64,000 nt of DNA from positions 30,812-94,811 of the forward strand of contig CAVOKP010000006.1 in NCBI GenBank assembly GCA_963696535.1, given 5' to 3'. The notes below the pieces were generated by a model that saw only the letters and a list, made by a program, of their open reading frames with translations, was not told the DNA's origin and ran no database searches. The position numbers and the translations under genes are program-made. Shown one piece after another: positions 8,355 to 29,360 of the stretch (its first letter is position 1; each line of letters opens with the position of its first letter). The stretch is from an uncultured Bacteroidales bacterium (GTDB lineage: Bacteria; Bacteroidota; Bacteroidia; Bacteroidales; VadinHA17).

Positions 8355-11300
8355 TCAGGCAGATTTCTCCAATCTCCTGTATTTCATATAAGCAAATACC
8401 GCCAGCGAAACGAGCACTGCAACAGCCACATATACAAATACAGGCACCGGTATGGGATCACCCCCTGCATAGGAGTGCAGTCCGGTCAGATAATAGTTGA
8501 CCCCGAAATATGTCATCAGAACCGACGATATTGCAAACATCGACAACAGGTTGAAGGTGTAAATATCCTTCAGTCCCGGGATAAGCCTCGAGTGAATGAC
8601 AAAGCTGTAGACAACTATGGTTATCAGCGACCACGTTTCCTTCGGATCCCATCCCCAGTACCTTCCCCACGATTCATTTGCCCATACAGCCCCCAGGAAT
8701 GTACCTATAGTAAGCAAGTAGAGGCCCAGGGTAAGAGATTTATAGTTGATCACAACAAGCTCATCGATTGTCGCAGAAATCCTTTCAATATTCTTTTTAT
8801 CAGAAAGCAAAAGCAAAACCATCGAGATTATCGCAAGTATGGCGCCAAGGCCAAGAAATCCGTAACTGCCAGTTATTACCGAGACATGAAGCGTTAGCCA
8901 GTATGACTTCAGCACAGGCACAAGGTTGGTTATCTCAGGATCCATAAAACTCAGGTGAGCTACCATGAGCGTAAGTCCTGCAAGCACCGCTGTGGCCGAA
9001 AGGGCAAATGCCGACTTCCGGCTGAAAATGAATCCGGCCAGGAGCGTAACCCACGAAATGAATATCATCGATTCGTATCCGTTGCTCATAGGCGAATGTC
9101 CTGAAATGTACCATCTTAAACCAAGCCCGAACGTGTGGAAAACAAATCCCGCAAAAAGGATCCAGCTCAGGATTTTTACAAACAGCGGAACACTCTTCCT
9201 CCCTTTTAAAACCATGATGATAAGGCCGATGAGCATCAGAAGCCCCGTTGTTGCATAAAACGGAAAGAGGCGTTCAAAGATAATCATCCTGTAATAGAGC
9301 GATTCCGCCTTTGTTTTTGCCTCGGGAGGAAGATCGTAGCCTGAGAATCTCTTCTGGTAGTCACTGATTGAAGCTGAAATCTGATTGGCAGACCATTGTT
9401 TTTTTCCCGGAGGGCATCAGCCATTGAGTGAATTACATTGGCAAGGTAAACCGAATCCTCCCTGTTCATGGCAGTCTTCAGGGCCTCCTGCGGCGAACTC
9501 CAGTTATGAGGGTCCTTGTGGTTCGGAAAGATCTTCAGGAATGCTTCAGTATAGATCATATAGATGATATTGACCCTTTCATCAATCTTCATTATCTCCT
9601 TGTCGGCTTTTGATCTTGCCCCGGGTGATTTGGAGTATGCTTTACCCACTTCTTCCGAAAGCTTGTAAGCTCCTCCGTCAAGATCGACGAAGTCGGTGAA
9701 TGCACCATAATTGCCGTTAATCCCGAATGTTTTCTGGAGTTCACTGCTCGAAACCCTGATCAAGGGTACATCCTTCCAGTTTTCGAAATCAAGGTAAACT
9801 CCCAGAAAAACCTGCATGGAGGTCAGCCCTTCAAATTTATTTTCCCTTGTAACCTTTCTAAGGATATCATTGCTGAGGGTGAACAAAGGCTTTGTGCGCC
9901 CCTTCTGATCCTGCACCAGGATATTGCCAAATGATTCTGCAGCATCCTTCGAAGGGATAAGCCTCTGGGCATCTGCACCAATAAGTCCGGACAATAAAAA
10001 CAGGATCAGCAACACCGGTGCCTTTTTCCTCAGCGCTGAGCTCCAGAAGCCTGCATTTACAGAGTAAAAAACTGATTTCCTGTTAAGCAGTGAAAGGATA
10101 ATAAAAAGGAAAAGAAGAGCATAACCGCTATATGTGACAAGCATCCCTGCACGATCGTGATTAACTGAAAGTATCGTGCCCATCTCATCCTGATCATATG
10201 AGGACTGGTAAAAGCGGTATCCCTTGTGCTTGAGAATATTGTTCATGAATATCGTAAAAGGCTCTTCAAGGCTTTCAGCCCTGTCGATCAGGACAATATT
10301 GCTTTTATAACCCGAAGGGCTGTTTGAACCCGGGTATCTTTCAAGAACAAAGTCATTGAGCCGGAGGGAAAAGGGAAGGGATATCTCTTCGGAACCATAA
10401 CTTATTTCAAGGATTTTGCCGTCAAACCGTGCTGATGCTGATGAGTGGTACTCTGAGGCATTATCCAGTATATTGATTGTCGAAGTCTGCTCATCCCCCG
10501 AAAATACATGGAAAATGAATGAGTTAATGCCGGTGTTCTGACTGTTAGGGTCGACTGATACGGTCTTAAGCGTACCTTCCGCCTCAAGTTCCTGGGGAAC
10601 AATCATTATACCCTTCACCCTGTAGATCTGCATCGGGCTGAACTTGACGGTTTCACCCAGCCCGAACTCAAGCTTATCCCTTGTCATCATTCCTTCCTGA
10701 ACGACAGGGGATCCTGATGTCAATAAAGAAGTGAAGAGGAGTCTGTAATAATTGAAACATCATTGTTAGCCTGACTATTGAGTCCGATTGTAACACCATT
10801 GAATTCAGACGATTCGCCGCTCTTAAGCTTTATATTTTCCCTTTTAAGACTGTCGGTGGCCACAAATGAAATAACTGGCTCCCGCCAGGCGATTTGGAAA
10901 TTACCTCCGCGGCATTCGGAATAATTCTCGCAAGAACAAGCTCATATTCCTTATCTCCGGAACTGATCTTTTTTCTGTAGTTATCGGCCGAACGGGAACT
11001 CATGTAGTATTTTTGAATGTCCTTTTCAATGATGTTTCCCGATTCATCCTTCAGGGTGTAGCCCAGGTATTTGTCGCCCGAAAAGCATTTGTCCTGCTCC
11101 TCTCCCTCCCGGATATGTATCGAACCTTCCCATCCCGAATATCTTGTGATTGCCGCACCTAAGATCATTATCACGAATGAAAGATGGAAAATGAAACCTG
11201 TAAGCCTGGATTTCCTGTACAGCCTGAAGATTATAATCTGCCCTATCAGATTCACTGACAGAAGAAATAATATAAGCTCAAACCACCATGTGTCGTAAAC

Positions 11301-11426
11301 ATAATTGTAAGCTGCCGAAGATCCGTAATCGTTTTCAATGAATGTTGCAGCAGCCATTGAGGCCGCGAATATTACAAAAAGAATCCCCATAAAAACCGGG
11401 GAGAAGAGGAATTTGAAATATTTCAT
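8355..11426 (-). pseudogene. ccsBA: Fused system II cytochrome c synthase CcsBA (ResB-like plus CcsA/ResC-like), split by at least three frameshifts
   Basis: Three track ORFs make up the gene. 10830..11426 is the ResB N-terminus. 9284..10723 is the ResB body (LPFSLRLNDFVLERYPGSNSPSGYKSNIVL, KGYRFYQSSYD). 8355..9287 is CcsA with the W-rich motif WGRYWGWDPKETW. Alternate frames bridge the gaps: ...EPVISFVATDSLKRENIKLKSGESSEFNGVTIGL..., and ...QWSANQISASISDYQKRFSGYDLPPEAKTKAESLYYRMIIFERLF, which runs in frame into CcsA. Breaks are near 10880-10892, 10722-10735 and the T7 run at 9399-9405. Confidence 0.85.
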
Positions 11427-11472
11427 ATTTTTTTAATTCTGGTTGCTGGTTCTGATATCTTCGGTTTTGAAG

Positions 11473-11513
11473 AAACCCACCCCCAGCCCCTCCCGAGAGG
11501 GGAGTTTGTGGGA
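11473..11513. repeat. G/C-rich hairpin module, second copy at 27583-27613
   Basis: aaacccacccccagcccctcccgagaggggagtttgtggg. Its first 32 nt match the reverse complement of 27583-27613 at all but one position. Confidence 0.8.
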
Positions 11514-11526
11514 TTGTCTTCGGTCT

Positions 11527-12222
11527 TCATCCTTTTTCGGAGATCTGACTGAGTTTCTCCCTGTCGATGATTTTAATATACGATGACTTTGCATTGATTA
11601 TTCCCGATTCTTCCATATCACTGAGGATCCTTACAACGCTTTCCTTAACCATATTGGTCATTTCCCCCAGTTCCTGCCGTGAAAGGATCATCTCATACTC
11701 GTCGGCCTTGAAAATCTCATCTGAAAAATACAAAAGTGCTTCTGCCAGCCTGCCCGGCATCTTTTTCTGTGCAAGATTGACCATCCGGATATGCGAGCGA
11801 AGAGCTTTTGCACTTATATCTTCCACCAGGCTTTCTGCAAAATCTCCATTTATTCTGACAAGGCTCCTGAAGATGTCAAAGCTGATAAAACAAGCCTGTA
11901 GCGGGGTCAAAGCCGATACCGAGTATGCATATCTGGCATTGACATATGCACCCGGACCCATAATAAGCCGGCCGGGCAGCAATATACCCATTATGAAATT
12001 CTTTCCGTTAATTCCTTCATAATAGTTTTTTGCCATTCCGGTTGCAAGGAACAAGGCGTTGGAGGCAGGGGATCCCTGTTTTATCATAACCTCTCCCTGC
12101 CTGAATGTTGCCTCGTACCTGTTTTCGTTTACAAGATGCATCTCCTCACGAGTAAGATGCTGAAAACCTTTCCATTGCACAGGGCAGTTTTCACAATTGT
12201 CGATGGTGTTTACTTCTGACAT
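11527..12222 (-). CDS. Crp/Fnr family transcriptional regulator
   Basis: 231 aa with a cNMP-binding-type beta-roll region and a C-terminal HTH (RQELGEMTNMVKESVVRILSDMEESGII). The N-terminus has two cysteines (CENC). Confidence 0.8.
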   Translation of the reverse strand: MSEVNTIDNCENCPVQWKGFQHLTREEMHLVNENRYEATFRQGEVMIKQGSPASNALFLATGMAKNYYEGINGKNFIMGILLPGRLIMGPGAYVNARYAYSVSALTPLQACFISFDIFRSLVRINGDFAESLVEDISAKALRSHIRMVNLAQKKMPGRLAEALLYFSDEIFKADEYEMILSRQELGEMTNMVKESVVRILSDMEESGIINAKSSYIKIIDREKLSQISEKG

Positions 12223-12301
12223 ATCCCTTGAATAAAAGGAGGTTAAAAATAGAGATTCAAAGTGATAATAATAATAATGATTACAAATATCACTAATTTA
12301 A

Positions 12302-12315
12302 TTGATATATATCAC
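12302..12315. promoter_or_regulatory. FNR/CRP-type box TTGATATATATCAC (TTGAT-N4-ATCAC)
   Basis: Lies in the divergent region between the Crp/Fnr gene (start 12222) and the multiheme operon (start 12430). It matches the box at 18774-18787 at 13 of 14 positions, and the 3-nt TAA 5' flank is also shared. Confidence 0.55.
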
Positions 12316-12429
12316 TTACTTACTGTATATCTGTCAACTTTAAATGTTGCATATAGCATCCTTGCTGTTAAGAAATTAACAACTGCTTATTAGTAAATTG
12401 CATCTGAAAAAAAAATTAAAACCGATAAT

Positions 12430-13633
12430 ATGAAGAACCTGTTAAAACTATTTGCCATTTTATTCTCAGCTGCCTTTTTGTTTTCTGCATGCGAAGGTCC
12501 GATGGGCCCTGCAGGAGCTGACGGGTCTGACGGAGCAGACGGGAAGGACGGAAAAGATGCAAATGAAAACTGCAAGCTTTGTCATAACAGCACTGTTGTA
12601 CAGGCTAAAGCAATTGAGTATGAGCATTCCTTGCATTTTACAGGTGAAGCATTTGAGGAGGGGACACGAAACAACTGTGCTCCCTGCCATTCTCACCAGG
12701 GTTTCCTCGATGTGGTCACAAAAAGTACTGCGGCTACAATCGTTGTTGATCCGGCCAATGCCTCAAGATACATAAACAACTACGTTGCAAGTGCTTCAGC
12801 CCTGGCTCTGCCGGGTGCAATAAGCTGCTTCACTTGTCACAGCTCCTTACATAAGAACTATGCGTCAACTGAATTCATGCCGCTTGCAACCACTGCTGCA
12901 GTCTCAATGACGATGTGGGGCGGTGCAAAGACCATTAATTTCTCCAATAATACATCAAATCTTTGTGCCAAATGCCACCAGCCAAGGCCTGATAACGGCA
13001 TCATCAGGTGCACTGATCGACTATTCAAAACTGGTCACTGAACCTACGGTATCGTATACTCTATCATCTGTTTCATACAGGACAGGCATTCATTACGGTG
13101 CACACGGGGCAATGGCTGCCGGAGTCGGTGGAATTGAGTTCGGCTCAGGTTATACCAACTCTGCCCATACTGCAAATGCTTCGTGCACCGATTGCCATAT
13201 GGCTACACCATCGGGTCTGGCGGGAGGACATTCATTCAATGCAACCGGGAACTATGCCGGCTGCAACACCACTGGATGCCATACAACAATGAGCGCAACG
13301 AATGCAACTCTTACTGCCGCAAAGGCTGATATCACAGCCAAGATTGCCGAACTTGCCGACAAAATCAATGCCATCGGGGCAGGTCATGATATTCTTCAGA
13401 AAGATCCTTTGGACGGACAATATCATGGTAATTTTGATATATTTGATGCAGGCTCCAATCCAACAGGATATTGGAGAACAGGTGCAGGAGCTTCACCGGC
13501 TTTCCCTGCACTTACAAATGCTCAGTTCGGTGCAATCCTTAATTTCCAGCTTGTTGTTCGGGATGCGAGCACCGGTGTGCATAATTACCCTTACATCAAA
13601 AAGCTTCTTGAAAATACCATAGCAGCCATTTAA
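12430..13633 (+). pseudogene. Multiheme c-type cytochrome lipoprotein with N-terminal collagen-like G-X-Y repeat; one frameshift
   Basis: Lipobox LFSAC followed by GPM GPA GAD GSD GAD GKD GKD. Heme motifs are CKLCH, CAPCH, CFTCH, CAKCH and CTDCH, plus CNTTGCH. ORFs 12430..13041 and 12923..13633 are one gene with the frame switching near 12985-12992, just after CAKCHQPRP. Confidence 0.8.
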
Positions 13634-13653
13634 ATAATTGGTTGCGAAGAATA

Positions 13654-13684
13654 GAATGGGCGTTGCATGCAATGCCCATTTTTG
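13654..13684 (+). terminator. Hairpin plus T-run between the two + strand cytochrome genes (terminator or attenuator)
   Basis: AATGGGCGTTGCA-TGCAATGCCCATT (near-perfect palindrome) followed by TTTTG. Confidence 0.55.
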
Positions 13685-13717
13685 TTAAATTTGACTTTAC
13701 ACTATTATCCCTCTAAT

Positions 13718-15217
13718 ATGAAACTTTTTTCGTCAGGTAGAAACTGGATCTCGATAATTGGAATACTGATTGCCTCAGTCAATCTTCTAATGATCATCGT
13801 GCTTTTTGCTATTTCATCCATTTTCGATTAGAATGATACAAACCTGGGATTGTTCATTTATATCATCCTGCCTGGTTTCCTGCTGCTTGGACTTATTATG
13901 ATCCCGGCAGGAATTATAATTTCCAGGAAAAAAAGAATCGCTGAATCACAGGGTGAAAAGAGGCTTTTCCCTGCCATTGACCTTAATAATCCGAAGCATA
14001 GAAAAACATTTATTGGTTTCACAATTGCAACAGTAGTTATTCTATTTCTGTCCACCTATGGCAGCATCGAGGCATTTCATCTGACAGAATCCGTGGAGTT
14101 CTGCGGCACCCTCTGTCACAAGGTAATGGAACCCGAATACACGGCTTACCAGAATTCTCCCCATGCAAACGTTTCCTGTGTGGAGTGCCATGTGGGTAGC
14201 GGTGCATCATGGTATGTCAAATCAAAGCTCTCCGGGTTGCACCAGGTATATGCGGTTGCCACAAAAACTTATCCCTCCCCCATTGAAACTCCCCTCCATG
14301 ACCTTCGTCCGGCAAGCGAAACCTGCCAGAGATGCCACTGGCCCCAGAAATTTTATGCAAGGTCCCTTCAGACCAACAAGTATTACCTGGCAGATTCCCT
14401 TAATTCCGAATGGGATATCGTGCTTCAGATGAAGGTCGGTCCTGAATTCAGTGATCTTGGCACTACGGAAGGAATACACTGGCACATTAATCCGGATGTA
14501 AATATTGAATACATATCAGAAAACGATAAGCGTGAGTTAATAACTTACGTGAAATATACAAATAAGGCGACCGGGGAGGTTACCGTGTACCGGAATCCCG
14601 AGATTGAAATTTCTGACAGTATAATTTCTGTATCAACACCCAGGACCATGGATTGTATCGACTGTCATAACAGGCCCTCGCATAAATACAGTTCTCCACC
14701 CTCTTATTTTGATAAGGCCATGCTTACAAATGAAGTTTCCCGCGATATCCCGTTTATTAAGAGAACTGCAATGGAGATCCTCAGAAATACATTCTCCGAC
14801 AGGGACACGGCATTGATGCAGATAAAAGAGGGTATTTCAAATTACTATAAGACGGATTTCAGCGATTTCTACGAAAATAATCAGCCAAAGATTGACCAGT
14901 CAATTGCCAGTCTGCAGAATGCTTTCAGCCGTAATACTTTTCCCGGGATGAAAGTTACATATGATGTTTATCCCGATCATATCGGTCACCTGGAAGTTGA
15001 AGGCTGTTTCAGGTGTCATAATGACAATTTCACATCGGAAAACGGCAGGAGAATCACAAGGGACTGTAACCTTTGCCATACGATTATCGGCCAGGGCAGC
15101 GGAAAGCTGATGACGTATACCAACATAAAGGACACTCTTGAGTTTCAGCATCCTGTGGATATCGGAACAGTCTGGAAGGAAGCCAATTGTTCGGAGTGCC
15201 ACAGATATCTGTATTAA
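13718..15217 (+). pseudogene. NapC/NirT-type membrane-anchored multiheme cytochrome c (6 CXXCH plus CGTLCH), with an in-frame TAG at 13829-13831
   Basis: The track ORF starts at TTG 13850. The same frame upstream reads MKLFSSGRNWISIIGILIASVNLLMIIVLFAISSIFD-TAG-NDTNLGLFIYIILPGF, which gives a first TM helix before the stop and a second after it. The NapC/NirT-like signature is FCGTLCHKVMEPEYTAYQNSPHANVSCVECH. Further motifs are CQRCH, CIDCH, CFRCH, CNLCH and CSECH. Confidence 0.75.
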
Positions 15218-15220
15218 TAA

Positions 15221-15247
15221 GAAACCCGGTCGACTAAACCGGGTTTC
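15221..15247. terminator. Bidirectional terminator hairpin between convergent cytochrome operons
   Basis: GAAACCCGG-TCGACTAAA-CCGGGTTTC, an 8-bp perfect stem flanked by A and T residues. It lies between the stops at 15217 (+) and 15273 (-). Confidence 0.6.
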
Positions 15248-15272
15248 CCTTGCTCAGGTCAGCCAGAAATTT

Positions 15273-15689
15273 CTATTTCTTGAATGTGCGCATGTAGTTT
15301 ACCATGTTCCAGATATCATCGTCGGATAGTTTACCTTCGTACTTTGGCATTTCATCCCTTCCGACTTTGGTTTTGTAGAAGTGCTCCCCATCGGTCTGTT
15401 TCTGATATGCTTCTTTGGAAAAATCACCCGGGAAGGTCTTCAGGGCTCTTGCCTTTACACCATCGCCAAGGCCAGTTTTCCCATGGCACGAGGCACAGTT
15501 TTTGGTGTAGAGAGCCAATCCTGCCTTATTGCTTGCTTCTCCTGCAGCAACAGGATTCTTCATTGTTTTATAATTTTCAGGTGCATCCCATGGTTTTGGT
15601 TGTGCCTGGGCTGAAACATTCATATTCAGCACAGCAATACCTATTAGGGCAACCAATGAACTGAGAATTACTTTCTTAACATTCTTCAT
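15273..15689 (-). CDS. Class I monoheme cytochrome c, periplasmic
   Basis: 138 aa with a signal peptide, a single CASCHG motif and a distal Met region (GRDEMPKY). Confidence 0.8.
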   Translation of the reverse strand: MKNVKKVILSSLVALIGIAVLNMNVSAQAQPKPWDAPENYKTMKNPVAAGEASNKAGLALYTKNCASCHGKTGLGDGVKARALKTFPGDFSKEAYQKQTDGEHFYKTKVGRDEMPKYEGKLSDDDIWNMVNYMRTFKK

Positions 15690-15752
15690 AATCGATCTTT
15701 TTTAGTTATTACTTATGTTATGCAATTATCGTGCAATTTTTTATGACCCGCA

Positions 15753-16367
15753 TTAATGTTCTTCCGACTCATGATATCCCGTGATCATCCCGCGGAACAG
15801 CGATGTGGGCTTTGATCCGAGGGTGCATGTATAAATATGAATGACAAGGAACACCGAAACGAAGAATCCCATAGTAATATGCAGCAGGTCAGTCAGGATG
15901 AGACCGCTGACCCCGAAGACCCTGTTTATCGTTACTTCAGGGAACATAAGGCCAATGCCTGAAATAATAACAAGCGGCATGGCTACATACATTGCCAATA
16001 CGTACGAGAACTTCTGAAGGGGATTGAATTTCCGTTCCAGGGTCACCGGAAAGGGATGCTTTTCGCCCCTGAACATTCCCCATGCATAATACCTCATCTG
16101 CTTTAAAAGATCCGGCCAGAAATTTTGTTTTTCAATCTTATAGTATTTTCCGTTCCCGGTGAAGAGGTTCCCTGTTACAAAGAAAATAAAGCTGAGAGTC
16201 AGGAATGTGGCGGATAAATTATGCCATTTCACGGCTTTTTCGAAGCCGACAAGGAATTTCAAATCCTCTCCCGTGTACTGCATGCTTATGCCGGTAAGGA
16301 TAAGAATCAATACCAGGACGGCATTCAGCATATGCCAGAATCTGACCCATTTGGGATATAAATACAT
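15753..16367 (-). CDS. Membrane cytochrome b (Ni/Fe-hydrogenase / FdnI / PhsC-type, four helices)
   Basis: 204 aa with four hydrophobic helices carrying conserved-looking His residues (WVRFWHMLNAV, KWHNLSA, LLHITMGFFVSVFLVIHIY). Confidence 0.7.
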   Translation of the reverse strand: MYLYPKWVRFWHMLNAVLVLILILTGISMQYTGEDLKFLVGFEKAVKWHNLSATFLTLSFIFFVTGNLFTGNGKYYKIEKQNFWPDLLKQMRYYAWGMFRGEKHPFPVTLERKFNPLQKFSYVLAMYVAMPLVIISGIGLMFPEVTINRVFGVSGLILTDLLHITMGFFVSVFLVIHIYTCTLGSKPTSLFRGMITGYHESEEH

Positions 16368-16382
16368 GTTATCTCTATATGG

Positions 16383-17375
16383 TTAATTTTTTTTACTGAT
16401 CCTGAAAAGCAAGTGAACGGCTATACCGCACGACAGCATAATAAAAATTATGATACTCAGGTTATTAAGATATTGATTCCGGTTAGCGCCAATTACATAT
16501 GATTCATTCATTATGATCCCGTTAAAGAATCCATCTTTTCTCTGCTCCTTCGACTGAAATTTATAAAGTGAGGACATGAGCAATGAGTTCTGGGTGTGAC
16601 ACTCATTGCATGCTTTTACGGCATCCGCTTTCGGCTTGATAAGATGAGCAACAAGAATGGTATCATTCACCTTGGTATGGCATTCTATGCATCTTACACT
16701 CTTAAAATGAGCCTCCTGGTTCGGCAGCCAGTCATGAGTTGAAAGAATGCTGATTTCTTCCCTGTCGGAAAGCAAATGAAACCTGTCAAAGTCAGAGTGG
16801 CAGTTCAGACAGATATTGTTATCGTAAAGGATTGTTTCCTTAAGGTTCTCGCTGTTCCTGATACTTATCCTGTACTCATGCGGGTCATGGCATTTCCAGC
16901 ATGAGAAACCCTCCTCTTCAAGGGTAAAATGGACACTCTTCTGATATTCGGATTCTATAGTTTCAAAATTGAACCGGGCAAACATTTCATCACCCCCATG
17001 GCAGTCGATGCAGTTATAACCCTGTTCCATCCTTAGCTCCCCGGAATGCGGGAATTGAACATAATCACCTGAATGACAGTCAGTACAACTGAAGCTCTTA
17101 TGATTTGACTGATAAAAATCTTCCCGTGTTACGACTCTTTCTGAAAACATCATTGCCCTGACCTGCCGTCCGAGGTTTTCATTCGTGTATTCGTACCTGT
17201 TCTGGCCGTGACATACGAAACAGCGCTCGTTGTCCTCAAAAAATGGAGATTTAAAGAGAGTTGTGTCTATGGTACCGGATTTCAAATCCTTAAGGTCCAG
17301 TCCGGATACAAAATCAGGTCTGCCCGAAAAAACAAACAGAAAGACGATCAGATATTTCACAGAAGATGATGTCAT
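16383..17375 (-). CDS. Heptaheme c-type cytochrome with C-terminal membrane anchor
   Basis: 330 aa with a signal peptide. Heme motifs are CFVCH, CTDCH, CIDCH, CWKCH, CLNCH, CIECH and CNECH. The C-terminal TM helix is LSIIIFIMLSCGIAVHLLF. Confidence 0.85.
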   Translation of the reverse strand: MTSSSVKYLIVFLFVFSGRPDFVSGLDLKDLKSGTIDTTLFKSPFFEDNERCFVCHGQNRYEYTNENLGRQVRAMMFSERVVTREDFYQSNHKSFSCTDCHSGDYVQFPHSGELRMEQGYNCIDCHGGDEMFARFNFETIESEYQKSVHFTLEEEGFSCWKCHDPHEYRISIRNSENLKETILYDNNICLNCHSDFDRFHLLSDREEISILSTHDWLPNQEAHFKSVRCIECHTKVNDTILVAHLIKPKADAVKACNECHTQNSLLMSSLYKFQSKEQRKDGFFNGIIMNESYVIGANRNQYLNNLSIIIFIMLSCGIAVHLLFRISKKN

Positions 17376-17394
17376 CCCTTAATTAAATAAGAAA

Positions 17395-18258
17395 TCAGAA
17401 TCTCACGGTTATATTGAATCCTATTAGAAATTCACCATCGGCAAAATTATTTGTATTGAAAACAAGGTTCCGCTGGTTGATTATATCCGAATAATTGGCT
17501 GCAAATACCTGGAATGTATGGGTTGCTGTCCCTATTTCCCAACCCAGTGACAGATTGGGCTTTGGTTGTTCTTCAAGATCCTGTTTCGTCAGAAGCTGGT
17601 CATACTCAAAGATTATCGAATGCGAATCAGTTACGGACAGCCTTCCTCCTGCCGATAATCCGAAGTTCAGGTTGCTGTATTTCAGTTCGTTTGTAAATTG
17701 AGGAACTGCATTGAAATAGATCACTGAAGGTGCAACCTGGAATGAAAACTTCTCAGAGAACTTCCTGGCAAGAATAAGTTGTGTGAAATATGACAGCCTG
17801 TGGATATCCCTGTAACGTTCAACAGGTCCGAAGGCCTCCTCCTTGCGAAGGTCAATAACCAGGTTGCCATAGTATGACAGGGATACAGGCATGCTGTTAT
17901 CTTCTGTCTGCTGAAGTATCAGGTATTTCCATTGAATATCCTGAAGTTTATAATCTTTGGTGGTCCCGGCTCCAAGCATCAGCCTGTCGGTTATTCCGAA
18001 ATTGAGGCCAAGCCTTGTATTTGCTGCGCCATAGATCCCGAACAGATTATGATAGTTTTCGATCAGGCTGAAGCGGTGGTGGATCTGAAGTTCTACTCCG
18101 CCCTTCCAGGGAGTGGCAACGGTCTGGTTGTCAATAAGCGTGCCTGTTCCGAAAGTAAACCTTACCGGTTTTGATTTCTCAACAGGTTGTGCTTCCTCCT
18201 GAGCTTGTAATGAAAGCATGAAGGCTGAAAAAAGCATTAGAAAAAAAGTCTTTTTCAT
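17395..18258 (-). CDS. Outer-membrane beta-barrel protein (DUF5777-like suspected)
   Basis: 287 aa. Signal peptide ends ...SLQAQ. Amphipathic strands alternate throughout. C-terminal ...FNITVRF has the aromatic last residue typical of OMPs. Confidence 0.65.
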   Translation of the reverse strand: MKKTFFLMLFSAFMLSLQAQEEAQPVEKSKPVRFTFGTGTLIDNQTVATPWKGGVELQIHHRFSLIENYHNLFGIYGAANTRLGLNFGITDRLMLGAGTTKDYKLQDIQWKYLILQQTEDNSMPVSLSYYGNLVIDLRKEEAFGPVERYRDIHRLSYFTQLILARKFSEKFSFQVAPSVIYFNAVPQFTNELKYSNLNFGLSAGGRLSVTDSHSIIFEYDQLLTKQDLEEQPKPNLSLGWEIGTATHTFQVFAANYSDIINQRNLVFNTNNFADGEFLIGFNITVRF

Positions 18259-18286
18259 TTTATCTGGTTTAATAGGTTAATTAAGG

Positions 18287-18664
18287 TTAGTTGTTCAGGG
18301 CTCCCTGTCCGATCCACAAAAGGACAAGCTGTTTTTCCGAATCAAGCGTGAACGCAGCATGGCTTGATGAAACCATCTTTTTATAAAGCTTGCTGTCATC
18401 GGCAGGAGTTGTTACATAACCGCCTCCTGTAAGTGATGCATAGGAAAAGCCATTCCTGAGGTCCGGATTGCGTGATCCCTTATGACATGCAATGCAGTTG
18501 GTTGTGAAAATCGGCTGGATCTGGGTCTGAAACAGAACCGGCTCATCAGGATCTACCGTTTCCAGTTGGTATGCATATTTCTCACATGATGAAAACAGCA
18601 GCATACCTGCAGGAATTATCAAAGCCGCCACAATACTCCATGAAAATCTGAATATCCTTTTCAT
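18287..18664 (-). CDS. Small monoheme cytochrome c lipoprotein (PSCyt-like)
   Basis: 125 aa with lipobox LFSSC and a single heme motif in IQPIFTTNCIACHKG. Confidence 0.7.
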   Translation of the reverse strand: MKRIFRFSWSIVAALIIPAGMLLFSSCEKYAYQLETVDPDEPVLFQTQIQPIFTTNCIACHKGSRNPDLRNGFSYASLTGGGYVTTPADDSKLYKKMVSSSHAAFTLDSEKQLVLLWIGQGALNN

Positions 18665-18689
18665 TTTTCAGTTACTGTTAATAATTTCA

Positions 18690-18697
18690 CAAAGATA
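18690..18697 (-). promoter_or_regulatory. Candidate -7 box TATCTTTG for the minus-strand cytochrome operon
   Basis: The reverse strand reads TATCTTTG (TAnnTTTG) about 26 nt upstream of the ATG at 18664. Confidence 0.35.
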
Positions 18698-18773
18698 TCT
18701 GACATTACTGATTAATAACATTTTACACCCTCCAATTTTGCCTTGTGAAATATGCTGTTTATCATACAGATAA

Positions 18774-18787
18774 TTGATCTATATCAC
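18774..18787. promoter_or_regulatory. FNR/CRP-type box TTGATCTATATCAC
   Basis: Centred about 116 nt upstream of the operon start at 18664. It matches 12302-12315 at 13 of 14 positions and shares the TAA flank. Confidence 0.55.
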
Positions 18788-18877
18788 CCGTGATGGTGAT
18801 AAATACTTATTGCCATCAAAAGTAAAAAATCAAACCTATAATGTTAATCGAGTCAATCCAAATTTTGCATCAGAAGA

Positions 18878-18942
18878 GGCACGGATTGCAACCGAGTCTC
18901 GCTTTAGCGGGACGAGCTCGGCGAAGCCAAATCCGCGCCAGC
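18878..18942. repeat. Singleton of the GGCACGGATTGCAA...AAATCCGCGCCAGC hairpin with a 37-nt insertion in its loop
   Basis: ggcacggattgcaa + ccgagtctcgctttagcgggacgagctcggcgaagcc + aaatccgcgccagc. The insert can itself fold (CCGAG..CTCGG). Confidence 0.75.
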
Positions 18943-18946
18943 AAAG

Positions 18947-19014
18947 CAACTCCGTGCAAACTCCATGTACCTCCGTGTAATACCGTGGTTAAAATGATTT
19001 TAAATCCCACGGTA
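18947..19014. repeat. CCGTG-periodic hairpin module, related to 41464-41547
   Basis: caactccgtgcaaactccatgtacctccgtgtaataccgtgg ... cccacggta. Confidence 0.6.
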
Positions 19015-19025
19015 ACCTAACAGGA

Positions 19026-20804
19026 TTAAAATTTGTAAGAGTTGTCTTCTATCAGCTTGTCCGCAATTCTTCTTCTTGCATCCTTTATGTTGATGCAGCT
19101 GACTTTCGAGAGGATCTCAATCGCATTTTCGAGCACCGGCAATGATTCGGGGGATGCGAATGAGCAGACTGCATCGGTTGCCGACTTCCTCACTTTATCA
19201 GCTGTATCATAGACATTTACATCAAGGATATCCTTATAAACCGATACTGTCCCTTTTATTCCTTCCAGCTTTTCAACCCTGAGGGCAAGCGATTCTGAGA
19301 GATACGTTTCCATCATCATTTCGGTGATATTGTTCATCACCTCCTGCTCATTCAGAATTGTTTTCCCAAACTGCTTCATCGCACCATGCATGCAAATAAG
19401 GATTACTTTCTTGAAGTTCCTTATGTATCTCCTTTTTTGCTCAAAGTAAGTCTCGTCACTGGTTTTCCCGCCGGTAATCCCTTCCAGATCGCTATAAAGC
19501 TTTTCTGCTTCGCCGAAGAGGTCGAAATCTCCCTTCATTGCCCTCTTCATTGCGGTATCGGATACAAGGAGCCTGTTAATCTCGTTCGTTCCTTCGAATA
19601 TCCGGTTTATTCTGGAATCGCGGTATCCCCTTTCAACGTCCATTTCAGCCGAGTATCCCATTCCTCCGTATATCTGAACAGCCTCATCAGAAACGAAATC
19701 GAGCATTTCCGAACCAACGACCTTCAGTATAGCTGCCTCAACGGCATAATGGCTGATTGCATCGATCGCAGCCCTTTCCTTGTCGCCGCATTCAGATCTA
19801 TACTTCTCCATGAGTTCATCAATATCCCTGCTTACCCTGTAAACAGCTGATTCTGATGCAAAAAGCCGGATTATCTGTTCTGCAAGCTTGTGTTTTATTG
19901 CCCCGAATGTCGAGATGAACACCCCAAACTGTTTCCGTTCATTTGCATATTTCACCGAATCATTTATAGCCTTTTTTGCTGCCCCTATTACATTGGCGCC
20001 AAGCTTGATCCTTCCCATGTGAAGGATGCTCAGGGCTATCCTGAAACCTTCGCCTCTCTTGCCAAGAAGGTTCTCAACCGGGACTTTCACATCATTGAAA
20101 TAGATCTGGGCTGTTGAAGATCCCTTAATACCCATCTTATGTTCATCGGGTCCGATTACCACCCCGGGTGTAGTGCTTTCAATGATGAATGCGCTCAGAA
20201 CCCTGTCAGTGTCTATCTTGGCAAACACTACCAATGTGTCTGCAAATCCGGCATTTGTGATCCACATCTTCTGACCGTTGATTATGTAGTGCCTGCCATC
20301 TTCGGAAAGGGTGGCATTTGTTTTTCCCGAATTTGCATCACTGCCTGCACCTGGTTCGGTGAGGCAGTATGCCCCGATCATCTCACCCGTAGCAAGTTTT
20401 GTGACATACCGCTGCCTCTGATCCACGGTTCCATAATACATTATCGGCAGGGTGCCTATTCCGCAGTGTGCCATATATGCAACCGAAAACGAATAGCCTG
20501 CCCCGGTGGTCTCGGCAACAAGCATCTGGGTCACAAAATTCTGACCGAAACCACCGTACTCCTCAGGGATCGAAATACCCAGCATTCCAAGCTCTCCTGA
20601 TTTCTTCAGGATTGTTCTCATCAGTTCCCGGTCGCCTTTTTCGAGGGCTGCAATATTCGGATAAACCTCAGCATCCAGAAAATCCTTGCAGGTCCGGGCG
20701 ATCATTCGCTGTTCCTCATCGAATTCTTCAGGAATAAAAACATCTTTTGGTTCAATCTCACTTACAAGGAATTCTCCGCTTTTCAAGGTTTTTCTGCTTT
20801 CCAT
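19026..20804 (-). CDS. Long-form acyl-CoA dehydrogenase
   Basis: 592 aa with ACAD signatures (GAYCLTEPGAGSD, QIYGGMGY) and a C-terminal extension domain. Confidence 0.85.
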   Translation of the reverse strand: MESRKTLKSGEFLVSEIEPKDVFIPEEFDEEQRMIARTCKDFLDAEVYPNIAALEKGDRELMRTILKKSGELGMLGISIPEEYGGFGQNFVTQMLVAETTGAGYSFSVAYMAHCGIGTLPIMYYGTVDQRQRYVTKLATGEMIGAYCLTEPGAGSDANSGKTNATLSEDGRHYIINGQKMWITNAGFADTLVVFAKIDTDRVLSAFIIESTTPGVVIGPDEHKMGIKGSSTAQIYFNDVKVPVENLLGKRGEGFRIALSILHMGRIKLGANVIGAAKKAINDSVKYANERKQFGVFISTFGAIKHKLAEQIIRLFASESAVYRVSRDIDELMEKYRSECGDKERAAIDAISHYAVEAAILKVVGSEMLDFVSDEAVQIYGGMGYSAEMDVERGYRDSRINRIFEGTNEINRLLVSDTAMKRAMKGDFDLFGEAEKLYSDLEGITGGKTSDETYFEQKRRYIRNFKKVILICMHGAMKQFGKTILNEQEVMNNITEMMMETYLSESLALRVEKLEGIKGTVSVYKDILDVNVYDTADKVRKSATDAVCSFASPESLPVLENAIEILSKVSCINIKDARRRIADKLIEDNSYKF

Positions 20805-28495: not shown

Positions 28496-29360
28496 AATTG
28501 ACAGGAAATCGGGATTCTGTTTTGGTGTAAGAAATGCCGTTGAGATAGCTGAAGAAGCCCTCCTGCGGGGAGAAAAGGTATTCTCCCTTGGCCCTATTGT
28601 CCATAACGACAAGGAGGTTGAACGGCTTGAATCACTTGGGCTTGTATCTATTAACCAGCAACAGTTCAGTGATCTGAAAAATTCCAAAGTGCTTATCCGT
28701 GCCCATGGGGAACCTCCGGAAACGTACAGAATAGCGAATGAAAACAATATCACTATCATTGAAGCTACATGCCCCATTGTAAAAAAACTCCAGCTAAAGA
28801 TGAGCGGGACCTGGAAAAGGATCGGTAAGGATAACGGTCAGATAGTGCTCTTCGGCAAACCAGGCCATGCAGAGGTTGTCGGCCTGCTTGGGCAGACTGG
28901 CAACGAGGGTATCCTGATATCTGGGCCAGCCGACATTGATAAAATTGATTTTGCACGTCCGGTAGCCCTGTTTTCGCAGACAACAATGGAGATCAACGAA
29001 TTCAATCATGTCAAAGAGTTGATATATAATAAGATGAAAGATCATGGGATTCTTGATCCTGATCATTATCTGGAGGTAAACAATACGGTTTGCGGGCAGG
29101 TCTCAAACAGGGAACCAAATCTCAGGTCATTTGCCCGTGAGCATGATACAATTATTTTTGTAAGCGGCAAGGAGAGTTCGAACGGAAAGATGCTCTTCTC
29201 GGTATGCAAAAGCGAAAATCCCGACACCCATTTTGTCTCATCACTCGAGGAGATAGATAAATCGTGGTTTGAAGGGAAGAGATCGGCAGGGATCTGCGGA
29301 GCTACATCCACCCCCAAATGGCTTATCGAGGAGATCAGGGATTTTGTTTCAACCATCTGA
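28485..29360 (+). CDS. ispH: 4-hydroxy-3-methylbut-2-enyl diphosphate reductase
   Basis: 291 aa. Contains GFCFGVRNAV, IVHN and ATCP, consistent with the three cluster-binding Cys contexts of IspH/LytB. Confidence 0.9.
   Translation: MKVEIDRKSGFCFGVRNAVEIAEEALLRGEKVFSLGPIVHNDKEVERLESLGLVSINQQQFSDLKNSKVLIRAHGEPPETYRIANENNITIIEATCPIVKKLQLKMSGTWKRIGKDNGQIVLFGKPGHAEVVGLLGQTGNEGILISGPADIDKIDFARPVALFSQTTMEINEFNHVKELIYNKMKDHGILDPDHYLEVNNTVCGQVSNREPNLRSFAREHDTIIFVSGKESSNGKMLFSVCKSENPDTHFVSSLEEIDKSWFEGKRSAGICGATSTPKWLIEEIRDFVSTI

Follow-up and report, generated by a model that had tools for sequence, protein, structure and literature searches.

A cytochrome island of an uncultured Bacteroidales bacterium and the probable operators of its local Crp/Fnr-type regulator

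Two nearly identical palindromes stand before the two cytochrome operons of an uncultured Bacteroidales bacterium, and the locus raises the question of whether they are operators and which protein reads them. The window analyzed here is a stretch of 64,000 nucleotides (C6:30812-94811) of an assembly comprising 2,650,336 bases in 23 contigs. It carries a cytochrome island, which appears to carry respiratory electrons to the cell surface, and the gene of a Crp/Fnr-family protein encoded at 11527-12222 on the minus strand, for which REG is used as a working name. We propose that the two palindromes, box 1 and box 2, are operators of REG, and the probability of this reading is put at nearly four in five; the sign of the regulation and the signal are assigned with much lower confidence. 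From the comparisons described below, we infer that REG would bind the boxes and that the operons would be co-regulated. The boxes and the genes around them are as follows.

12299-12315: box 1 (block F), the strong palindrome TTGATATATATCA(C), common to the divergent REG and cytA promoters; 29.0 bits
18771-18787: box 2 (block B), a strong site, GTGATATAGATCAATTA on the minus strand, upstream of the lipoprotein-DUF5777 operon; 27.4 bits
11527-12222, minus strand: REG, a 231-aa Crp/Fnr-family regulator with the recognition helix K-E-S-V-V-R and Cys10, Cys13, and Cys111
12430-15217, plus strand: cytA operon, with a multiheme lipoprotein cytochrome (12430-13633) followed by a NapC/NrfH-like multiheme cytochrome (13850-15217)
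15273-18664, minus strand: lipoprotein operon, with a lipoprotein, a DUF5777 β-barrel, a multiheme c7/DmsE-like cytochrome, a PhsC-like cytochrome b, and a monoheme cytochrome c
8355-11426, minus strand: ccsBA-type (system II) cytochrome c maturation genes, with ResB-like parts and CcsA, read here as three ORFs

The sequence-only reading had placed TAATTGATATATATCAC at 12299-12315 and TAATTGATCTATATCAC at 18771-18787, with a difference of one base, and both the coordinates and the difference were verified. Its distances from the box centers to the start codons are also correct: 121 nt for the ATG at 12430, 116 nt for that at 18664 (minus strand), and 86 nt for the REG ATG (12222). The 17-mer pattern TAATTGATNTATATCAC has exactly two copies in the assembly, both in the island, and ~0.003 copies would be expected genome-wide by an estimate from base composition. 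The short pattern TTGAT-N4-ATCA was found three times in the window (1.7 expected), the third match, at 29053, falling in coding DNA. In the genome, it was found 42 times (~34 expected), and 32 of these matches are in coding DNA. The genome-wide check proposed earlier, an enrichment of TTGATNNNNATCA upstream of respiratory genes, was therefore negative for the short pattern; because of the 42 matches against ~34 expected and their mostly coding positions, such a test is uninformative. The specificity belongs to the extended motif only. A weight matrix was derived from 48 sites, of which 46 belong to other genomes. In a scan of the genome with this matrix, the two boxes scored 29.0 and 27.4 bits, one further site scored 25.4, and the next best 18.6; the numbers of chance hits expected genome-wide are 0.005 at ≥27 bits and 0.025 at ≥25 bits. 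An RNA element was also considered for this position and rejected, because Rfam gave no match at E ≤1 within 11000-19500, the palindrome offers an AT-only stem of 6 bp, and it sits upstream of the predicted promoters.

The boxes are kept in relatives. A scan of one genome per species gave 31 orthologous loci, in metagenome-assembled genomes of Bacteroidales and Rikenellaceae with REG identities of 43-91 %, and the gene order is conserved. The center of box 1 lies 84-88 nt before the REG ATG in ~28 loci, and the box stays 119-123 nt before the divergent multiheme cytochrome gene; in 16 loci, 113-119 nt separate the center of box 2 from the lipoprotein ATG. In the two intergenic alignments, the box columns hold 1.70 and 1.71 bits each, compared with 1.03 and 0.84 bits in the remaining columns, which include other conserved blocks. 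Conservation at a fixed position in ~30 orthologous loci places the boxes beyond chance. The association extends to more distant proteins. REG-like proteins with 33-40 % identity in other families of the order (G040, G035, and G027) keep K-E-S-x-x-R and have TTGAy-N4-rTCAA adjoining their genes.

A second survey covered 41 genomes, namely 40 searched relatives and this genome. An REG orthologue is present in 20 of the 41. In 13 of these 20, a strict 15-mer match precedes REG by 75-110 nt, whereas the genomes without REG contain about one scattered strict match each. The DUF5777 operon is found in 25 genomes, and a box 2 of at least 15 bits precedes it in every same-genus copy for which that region was recovered. 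Boxes without a detected REG were seen in G021 and G008. These apparent exceptions to the co-occurrence are explained by contig ends, which both genomes have at this place (the G021 contig ends ~100 nt past box 1). Matches outside the island in the 40 relatives, of which one was fetched per genome, were rejected as background, with the exception of those in G023, a genome of the same genus: they are mostly in coding DNA or beside unrelated genes, single, and without recurring neighbors.

REG is a member of the Crp/Fnr superfamily and is probably not FNR proper. It matches PF00027 (cNMP_binding, 1.3e-11) and PF13545 (HTH_Crp_2, 1.6e-13), both above the gathering scores, and its matches in the Protein Data Bank (PDB) include CRP, FNR, and NtcA. 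The NCBIfam scores are 45.8 for the Fnr model (cut-off 228) and 50.4 for the CRP model (cut-off 266). In the HMMER alignment, the cAMP contacts of CRP are not conserved, with Glu72 replaced by Gly, Arg82 by a gap, and Ser83 by Ala; Arg180 of the CRP helix RE--R, which reads TGTGA, is Lys in REG. An HcpR2-type protein is not indicated either, with Glu at position 181 and no GTAAC/GTTAC palindrome near REG. HMMER aligned the recognition helix K-E-S-V-V-R to R180-E181-T-V-G-R185 of CRP, and BLASTP aligned it to V-E-T-I-S-R of FNR (a lead only, as the FNR sequence did not come from a database); of the FNR-type helix E--SR (Glu209, Ser212, Arg213), REG keeps the Glu and the Arg and has Val at the position of Ser212. 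Residues 180, 181, and 185 of CRP contact DNA, changes at 180/181 track changes of the motif, and the FNR box is TTGAT-N4-ATCAA (Rodionov et al., PMC1274295). The helix K-E-S-V-V-R is invariant in all REG orthologues.

The genome encodes four Crp-type paralogues, plus one weak match that is a GntR-type protein. Glu at position 181 occurs only in REG; positions 180/181 are T-A in the paralogue on contig C23, T-S in that on C5, and R-P in that on C13. By these residues, REG is the only Crp/Fnr paralogue here with the Glu/Arg pair that suits a box with a TGA core. The proposal of the sequence-only reading, that both cytochrome operons and REG form one regulon under the encoded Crp/Fnr protein, is supported by this singular position of REG and by the confinement of high-scoring boxes to the island, in addition to the co-occurrence and the fixed spacing in ~30 genomes. 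Two of the other paralogues have features of their own. The C13 paralogue (upstream of 28711) has the helix ARPSIAR beside the palindrome GTAACATTTGTTAC, which matches the HcpR2 pairing published in PMC1274295. The C23 paralogue (C23:42934-43611) has 231 aa, an N-terminal CICQNC with a further Cys near 110, and the helix S-T-A-N-V-I-R; its four-cysteine set (CxCxxC...C) is more FNR-like than that of REG.

Each box is the strong center of a three-site array with 22-nt phasing. This feature goes beyond the sequence-only reading, as does the addition of the ccsBA genes to the REG operon. The auxiliary sites are listed below.

12327-12337, minus strand: auxiliary site E, TTGACAGATAT, whose TGAYA is displaced by 22 nt toward cytA relative to the TGAYA of box 1; conserved block aaTTGATAGATAT
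12281-12293, minus strand: auxiliary site G, AGTGATATTTGTA, with TGATA 22 nt from box 1 on the REG side; it also resembles a -7 element (GATATTTG)
18752-18765, minus strand: auxiliary site C', ATGATAAACAGCAT, with TGATA 22 nt promoter-proximal to box 2
18796-18808, minus strand: auxiliary half-site A, AAGTATTTATCAC, whose TATCA matches a site centered 22 nt distal to box 2

Among the 28 loci of region 1, TGAYA stands at offset -22 from the central site in 27, at 0 in 27, and at +22 in 22. Region 2 has TGAYA at 0 and +22 (the latter in 16 of 17 loci) and the right half-site TRTCA at -15 (= -22+7) in 14 of 17. A separate repeat search also detected the 22-nt tandem unit (12287-12308 / 12309-12330). 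Extra 22-nt modules bearing further boxes occur in L027 and L029, and G035, whose regulator is 39 % identical to REG, has TTGATCTGTATCAA plus another TGAT exactly 22 nt upstream.

The positions of the boxes were then compared with promoter elements. The -7 element of Bacteroidota promoters is TAnnTTTG, in some cases accompanied by a TTTG at -33, and 5'UTRs in B. thetaiotaomicron have a modal length of 23 nt (PMC7366714). Candidates for the -7 element of the three transcription units are the following.

18690-18697, minus strand: -7 element of the lipoprotein operon, TATCTTTG, an exact TAnnTTTG 25 nt before the ATG at 18664
12394-12401, plus strand: candidate -7 element of the cytA operon, TAAATTGC
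12244-12251, minus strand: uncertain candidate -7 element of the REG operon (block H), TATTTTTA, separated by 20-21 nt from the ATG and by 65 nt from the box center

The lipoprotein operon has an element of the sigma-ABfr type, which reads TATCTTTG in 14 of 16 loci and TATATTTG in the other 2. Its 3' end is 90-91 nt from the center of box 2 in all 16 loci and 91 nt in the window. At the cytA operon, each of the 27 loci measured has the variant TAnnTTGC, typically at a distance of 28-31 nt from the start codon, and 91-93 nt separate its 3' end from the center of box 1 farther upstream. With spacings of 91-93 and 90-91 nt, the two cytochrome promoters are predicted to have one architecture, agreeing to ~2 nt. 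No clear -33 TTTG was found by eye at either of them. If transcription is assumed to start 4-7 nt after the -7 element, the strong site would fall between about -95 and -100, and the proximal auxiliary site between about -73 and -78. On the REG side, a TATTTTT(A/G) element stands 20-21 nt before the ATG, and the geometry is ambiguous: the box would be near -70 if block H is the -7 element and near -30 if block G is. The placement known from class II FNR-dependent promoters (~41.5 bp upstream of the start, over -35) is not seen, as the boxes are 90-93 nt or 65 nt from the predicted -7 ends.

Both regulatory regions also contain a second palindrome, TGT(T/G)AA-N4-TTAACA, in one conserved copy each.

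12366-12381: TGTTAA-N4-TTAACA copy at the ~-33 position of the cytA promoter
18676-18691: TGTGAA-N4-TTAACA copy (read on the minus strand) that overlaps, at the lipoprotein operon, the -7 element, start region, and leader

In the form TGT(T/G)A(A/T)-N4-TTAACA, this 16-bp palindrome has 50 strand-hits in 2.65 Mb (2.6 expected), at ~38 loci in coding and non-coding DNA. TGTkAA-N4-TTAACA was rejected as the site of REG because of this dispersal; a local regulator would not have a genome-wide element as its private site. The copy at the cytA promoter is probably a site for a different factor.

A mechanism can be proposed from these observations. The array would consist of a palindrome, aaTTGAyAwATrTCAATT, as the high-affinity center (the box), flanked 22 bp away by weaker TGAYA-type sites. 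As 22 bp correspond to two helical turns, we infer that dimers on adjacent units would be on one face of the DNA, so that two or three REG dimers could sit side by side. Array 1 would lie between divergent promoters, that of the cytA operon and that of REG-ccsBA, which encodes the regulator and the heme attachment proteins. The ccsBA genes downstream of REG on the same strand probably form one operon with it, because only 30-50 nt separate the two in other genomes. Array 2 would act upstream of the operon for the lipoprotein, DUF5777 protein, multiheme cytochrome, cytochrome b, and cytochrome c. At the cytochrome promoters, REG may function as an activator rather than a repressor, because its sites are far upstream and helically phased. 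REG appears to couple the genes of the cytochrome apoproteins with those for heme attachment, which would be a sensible regulatory logic.

The weakest step of the mechanism is the signal; REG might sense redox or oxygen via a variant iron-sulfur site on three cysteines. Cys10, Cys13, and Cys111 of REG align with Cys20, Cys23, and Cys122 of FNR, and FNR Cys29 corresponds to Gly19 (a lead only, by the same FNR sequence). REG has three of the four cluster cysteines of FNR. Among the orthologues, Cys10 and Cys13 are conserved outside the clade L026-L029, L027 is the one protein without Cys111, and position 8 varies. The missing Cys29 and the missing N-terminal Cys pair in L026-L029 weaken the case for an iron-sulfur site and for oxygen as the signal; a three-Cys core could carry a variant cluster. 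In Bacillus subtilis Fnr, a [4Fe-4S] cluster is ligated by three Cys and one Asp, and the cysteines are C-terminal. This protein gives a precedent for an FNR-type sensor with three cluster cysteines. It differs from REG in the location of the cysteines, and a conserved Asp, Glu, or His as the fourth ligand is not established in REG, in which position 8 is variable.

The regulon is predicted to be local to the island, because the bare pattern is not enriched genome-wide and the third high-scoring site is not conserved. This third box, ATTGACATATATCAATTA (C12:53643-53662, 25.4 bits), lies over the start codon of an ABC-transporter ATPase. It was rejected as a member of the regulon (C12:53645), since its right half is coding sequence, ATG TCA ATT G (M-S-I-V), and only ~3 of 30 orthologous loci have the left half. 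In G023, seven more arrays were found between genes, with 2-5 TTGAT-N4-ATCA boxes each, spaced by multiples of 22 nt; Tandem Repeats Finder (TRF) gave a period of 22 and 4.7 copies.

L092 3732-3837, L093 3653-3737, L094 3857-3920, L095 988-1049, L096 4138-4221, L097 3907-3926, L098 4128-4169: extra arrays of G023

Their neighbors encode a GFO/MocA oxidoreductase, an MFS transporter, UDP-glucose dehydrogenase with an epimerase, an M16 peptidase, RibD with LOG, OsmC with HycI, and a porin after ftsZ. No shared flanks or termini were found among these arrays, and a mobile element with shared ends was therefore rejected. The arrays of G023 represent either an expanded regulon or a repeat-like spread of the array.

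Several points weigh against the boxes being REG operators at activated promoters. The promoter assignments rest on consensus matches, and the cytA element is TAnnTTGC, not TAnnTTTG. The -7 element of REG is ambiguous, and its block G option, which puts the box near -30, would suggest autorepression. In the helix, REG has Lys at the position of CRP Arg180/FNR Val208 and Val at that of FNR Ser212 (again by the FNR sequence used above), so its specificity is not simply readable. REG has no equivalent of FNR Cys29, and the L026-L029 clade keeps the boxes without Cys10 and Cys13. In G023, box arrays adjoin seven unrelated housekeeping gene sets; the element thus has no intrinsic link to respiration, and a different binder, or spreading in the manner of a repeat, may be involved.

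The ambiguity at the REG promoter bears on an alternative in which the boxes are still REG operators and REG is mainly a repressor or autorepressor, with block G (GATATTTG) as the real -7 element and box 1 over -33. Block G resembles TAnnTTTG and is conserved more strongly than block H; by arithmetic, it would put the box center near -30 if it is the -7 element, and negative autoregulation is generally common among local regulators. However, the boxes are 90-93 nt upstream of the cytochrome -7 elements, far from the usual positions of repressors, and the absence of a -33 TTTG by eye at either cytochrome promoter suggests a need for an activator. The equivalent +22 site of region 2 (TGATAAAnAGCAT) is not promoter-like, by which block G can be explained as an auxiliary site. 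We consider this alternative unlikely, at about one quarter of the weight given to operators of REG in general.

The G023 arrays and the C23 paralogue raise another question, namely whether the boxes are bound by a different protein, such as this paralogue, another member of the Crp family, or an unrelated binder of AT palindromes, for example a metalloregulator of the Fur type, with the adjacency of REG being incidental. With its CxCxxC...C set, the C23 paralogue is a better candidate for a full cluster than REG, the many unrelated promoters with arrays in G023 would fit a more global factor, and TGATA-rich AT palindromes superficially resemble Fur boxes. A global factor should nevertheless have many sites, and strong sites are found here only in the island. 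The C23 (T-A) and C5 (T-S) paralogues are without Glu181, the residue tied to the TGA core in the literature (PMC1274295). Even where the identity of REG falls to 33-40 %, the box accompanies it at a constant distance, and TGATA-N2-TATCA has the 5-4-5 geometry of Crp/Fnr sites, not the 7-1-7 arrangement of Fur sites. A different binder is accordingly rather improbable. That the 22-nt arrays are a repeat element spreading in AT-rich intergenic DNA, with no dedicated regulatory role here, is hardly credible: G023 does have at least seven extra arrays of 22-nt period beside unrelated genes, but these are without shared flanks or termini, the checked non-island matches outside G023 (one per genome) are single and without recurring neighbors, and the island arrays are fixed to 1-3 nt relative to the -7 elements and start codons in ~30 genomes, where a passive repeat would drift.

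With REG as the probable reader of the boxes, the system can be compared with known regulators. REG shares with the FNR proteins of Escherichia coli and Aliivibrio fischeri the fold of cNMP-binding and HTH_Crp_2 domains and the 5-4-5 palindrome with a TTGA/TCAA core, a box type that also applies to ANR, EtrA, FixK, and DNR sites. The Glu and Arg of the helix are retained, equivalents of Cys20, Cys23, and Cys122 are present, and the predicted targets are respiratory genes and probably REG itself. REG differs from FNR in that Cys29 is missing, one subclade is without the N-terminal Cys pair, and Lys and Val stand in place of Val208 and Ser212. FNR is a global regulator, whereas REG is local with two regulatory regions; its sites are three-unit 22-bp arrays ~91-93 bp from a Bacteroidota -7 element, unlike the single FNR site at -41.5, and the promoters here are of the sigma-ABfr type. 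In function, the REG regulon looks like an FNR/FixK-type local regulon.

At class I CRP/FNR-dependent promoters, the activator is centered near -61.5, -71.5, -82.5, or -92.5. The arrangement here resembles these in the far-upstream and helically phased sites, with predicted centers at ~-73 to -78 and ~-95 to -100. It differs in the RNA polymerase and sigma factor and in having three phased sites, not one, and the starts here are predicted. We know of no alpha-CTD contact in Bacteroidota. In Shewanella, CRP and EtrA control the mtr multiheme-cytochrome genes. This is similar to the present case as a control of an outer-membrane electron-conduit cluster by the Crp/Fnr family; the Shewanella regulators are global and belong to a different phylum, and the system here (DUF5777 barrel and lipoprotein cytochromes) is not Mtr. 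HcpR2 of Bacteroides and Clostridia (GTAAC-N4-GTTAC; PMC1274295) is likewise a local Crp/Fnr-family regulator with a private palindrome beside its gene; it differs in having Pro at the position of Glu181, another motif, and another target, and REG is no HcpR. A literature search found no paper on an REG-type regulator or operator; the paper on PgRsp gives no operator, and PMC3590769 gives no residue-level detail.

On the whole, the proposal appears to be a well-supported and fairly ordinary prediction of a Crp/Fnr regulon, of a kind that is often made, with some unusual architecture. A broader and tentative idea, for which the odds are well below even, is that REG represents a Bacteroidota branch of three-cysteine (C-x2-C ... 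C) FNR-derived sensors whose fourth ligand is lost or moved. Such a sensor would activate sigma-ABfr promoters from a stereospecific, 22-bp-phased upstream array of two or three dimers, with the strong site fixed ~92 bp from the -7 element, and the array would spread modularly, as in G023. To our knowledge, no such array-based activation architecture has been described for Bacteroidota. If the idea is true, a dedicated switch for electron-export cytochromes could widen into a broader regulator through the spread of arrays. The carriers of the island, uncultured Bacteroidales, are common in peat, lake, and soil metagenomes, as judged from record titles. Knowledge of the switch of the island would make it possible to test when these fermenters use this kind of respiration. 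It would also supply defined promoters and operators as parts for Bacteroidota, and a natural series of FNR-like sensors in which four, three, or one of the cluster cysteines are present.

Some minor features of the island were also observed. A G+C-rich stretch (18860-19025) between an acyl-CoA dehydrogenase gene and box 2 contains the short direct repeats CTCCGTGCAA / CTCCGTGTAA, 21 nt apart, and was absent from the orthologous regions that were aligned. A G+C-rich hairpin-like insert (CCCACCCCCAGCCCCTCCCGAGAGGGGAG...) is located at 11478-11515, between REG and the ResB-like gene; the gap between these genes, 30-50 nt in other genomes, is widened by the insert to ~100 nt in the window. The multiheme lipoprotein cytochrome of the cytA operon (12430-13633) appears to be split by a frameshift into two ORFs, and its orthologue in L006 (L006:8594-9793) is one protein of 400 aa. 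Both this gene and ccsBA (8355-11426) are read as several ORFs each in this assembly, whereas the orthologues are continuous, and the split reading may be an artifact of assembly or sequencing.

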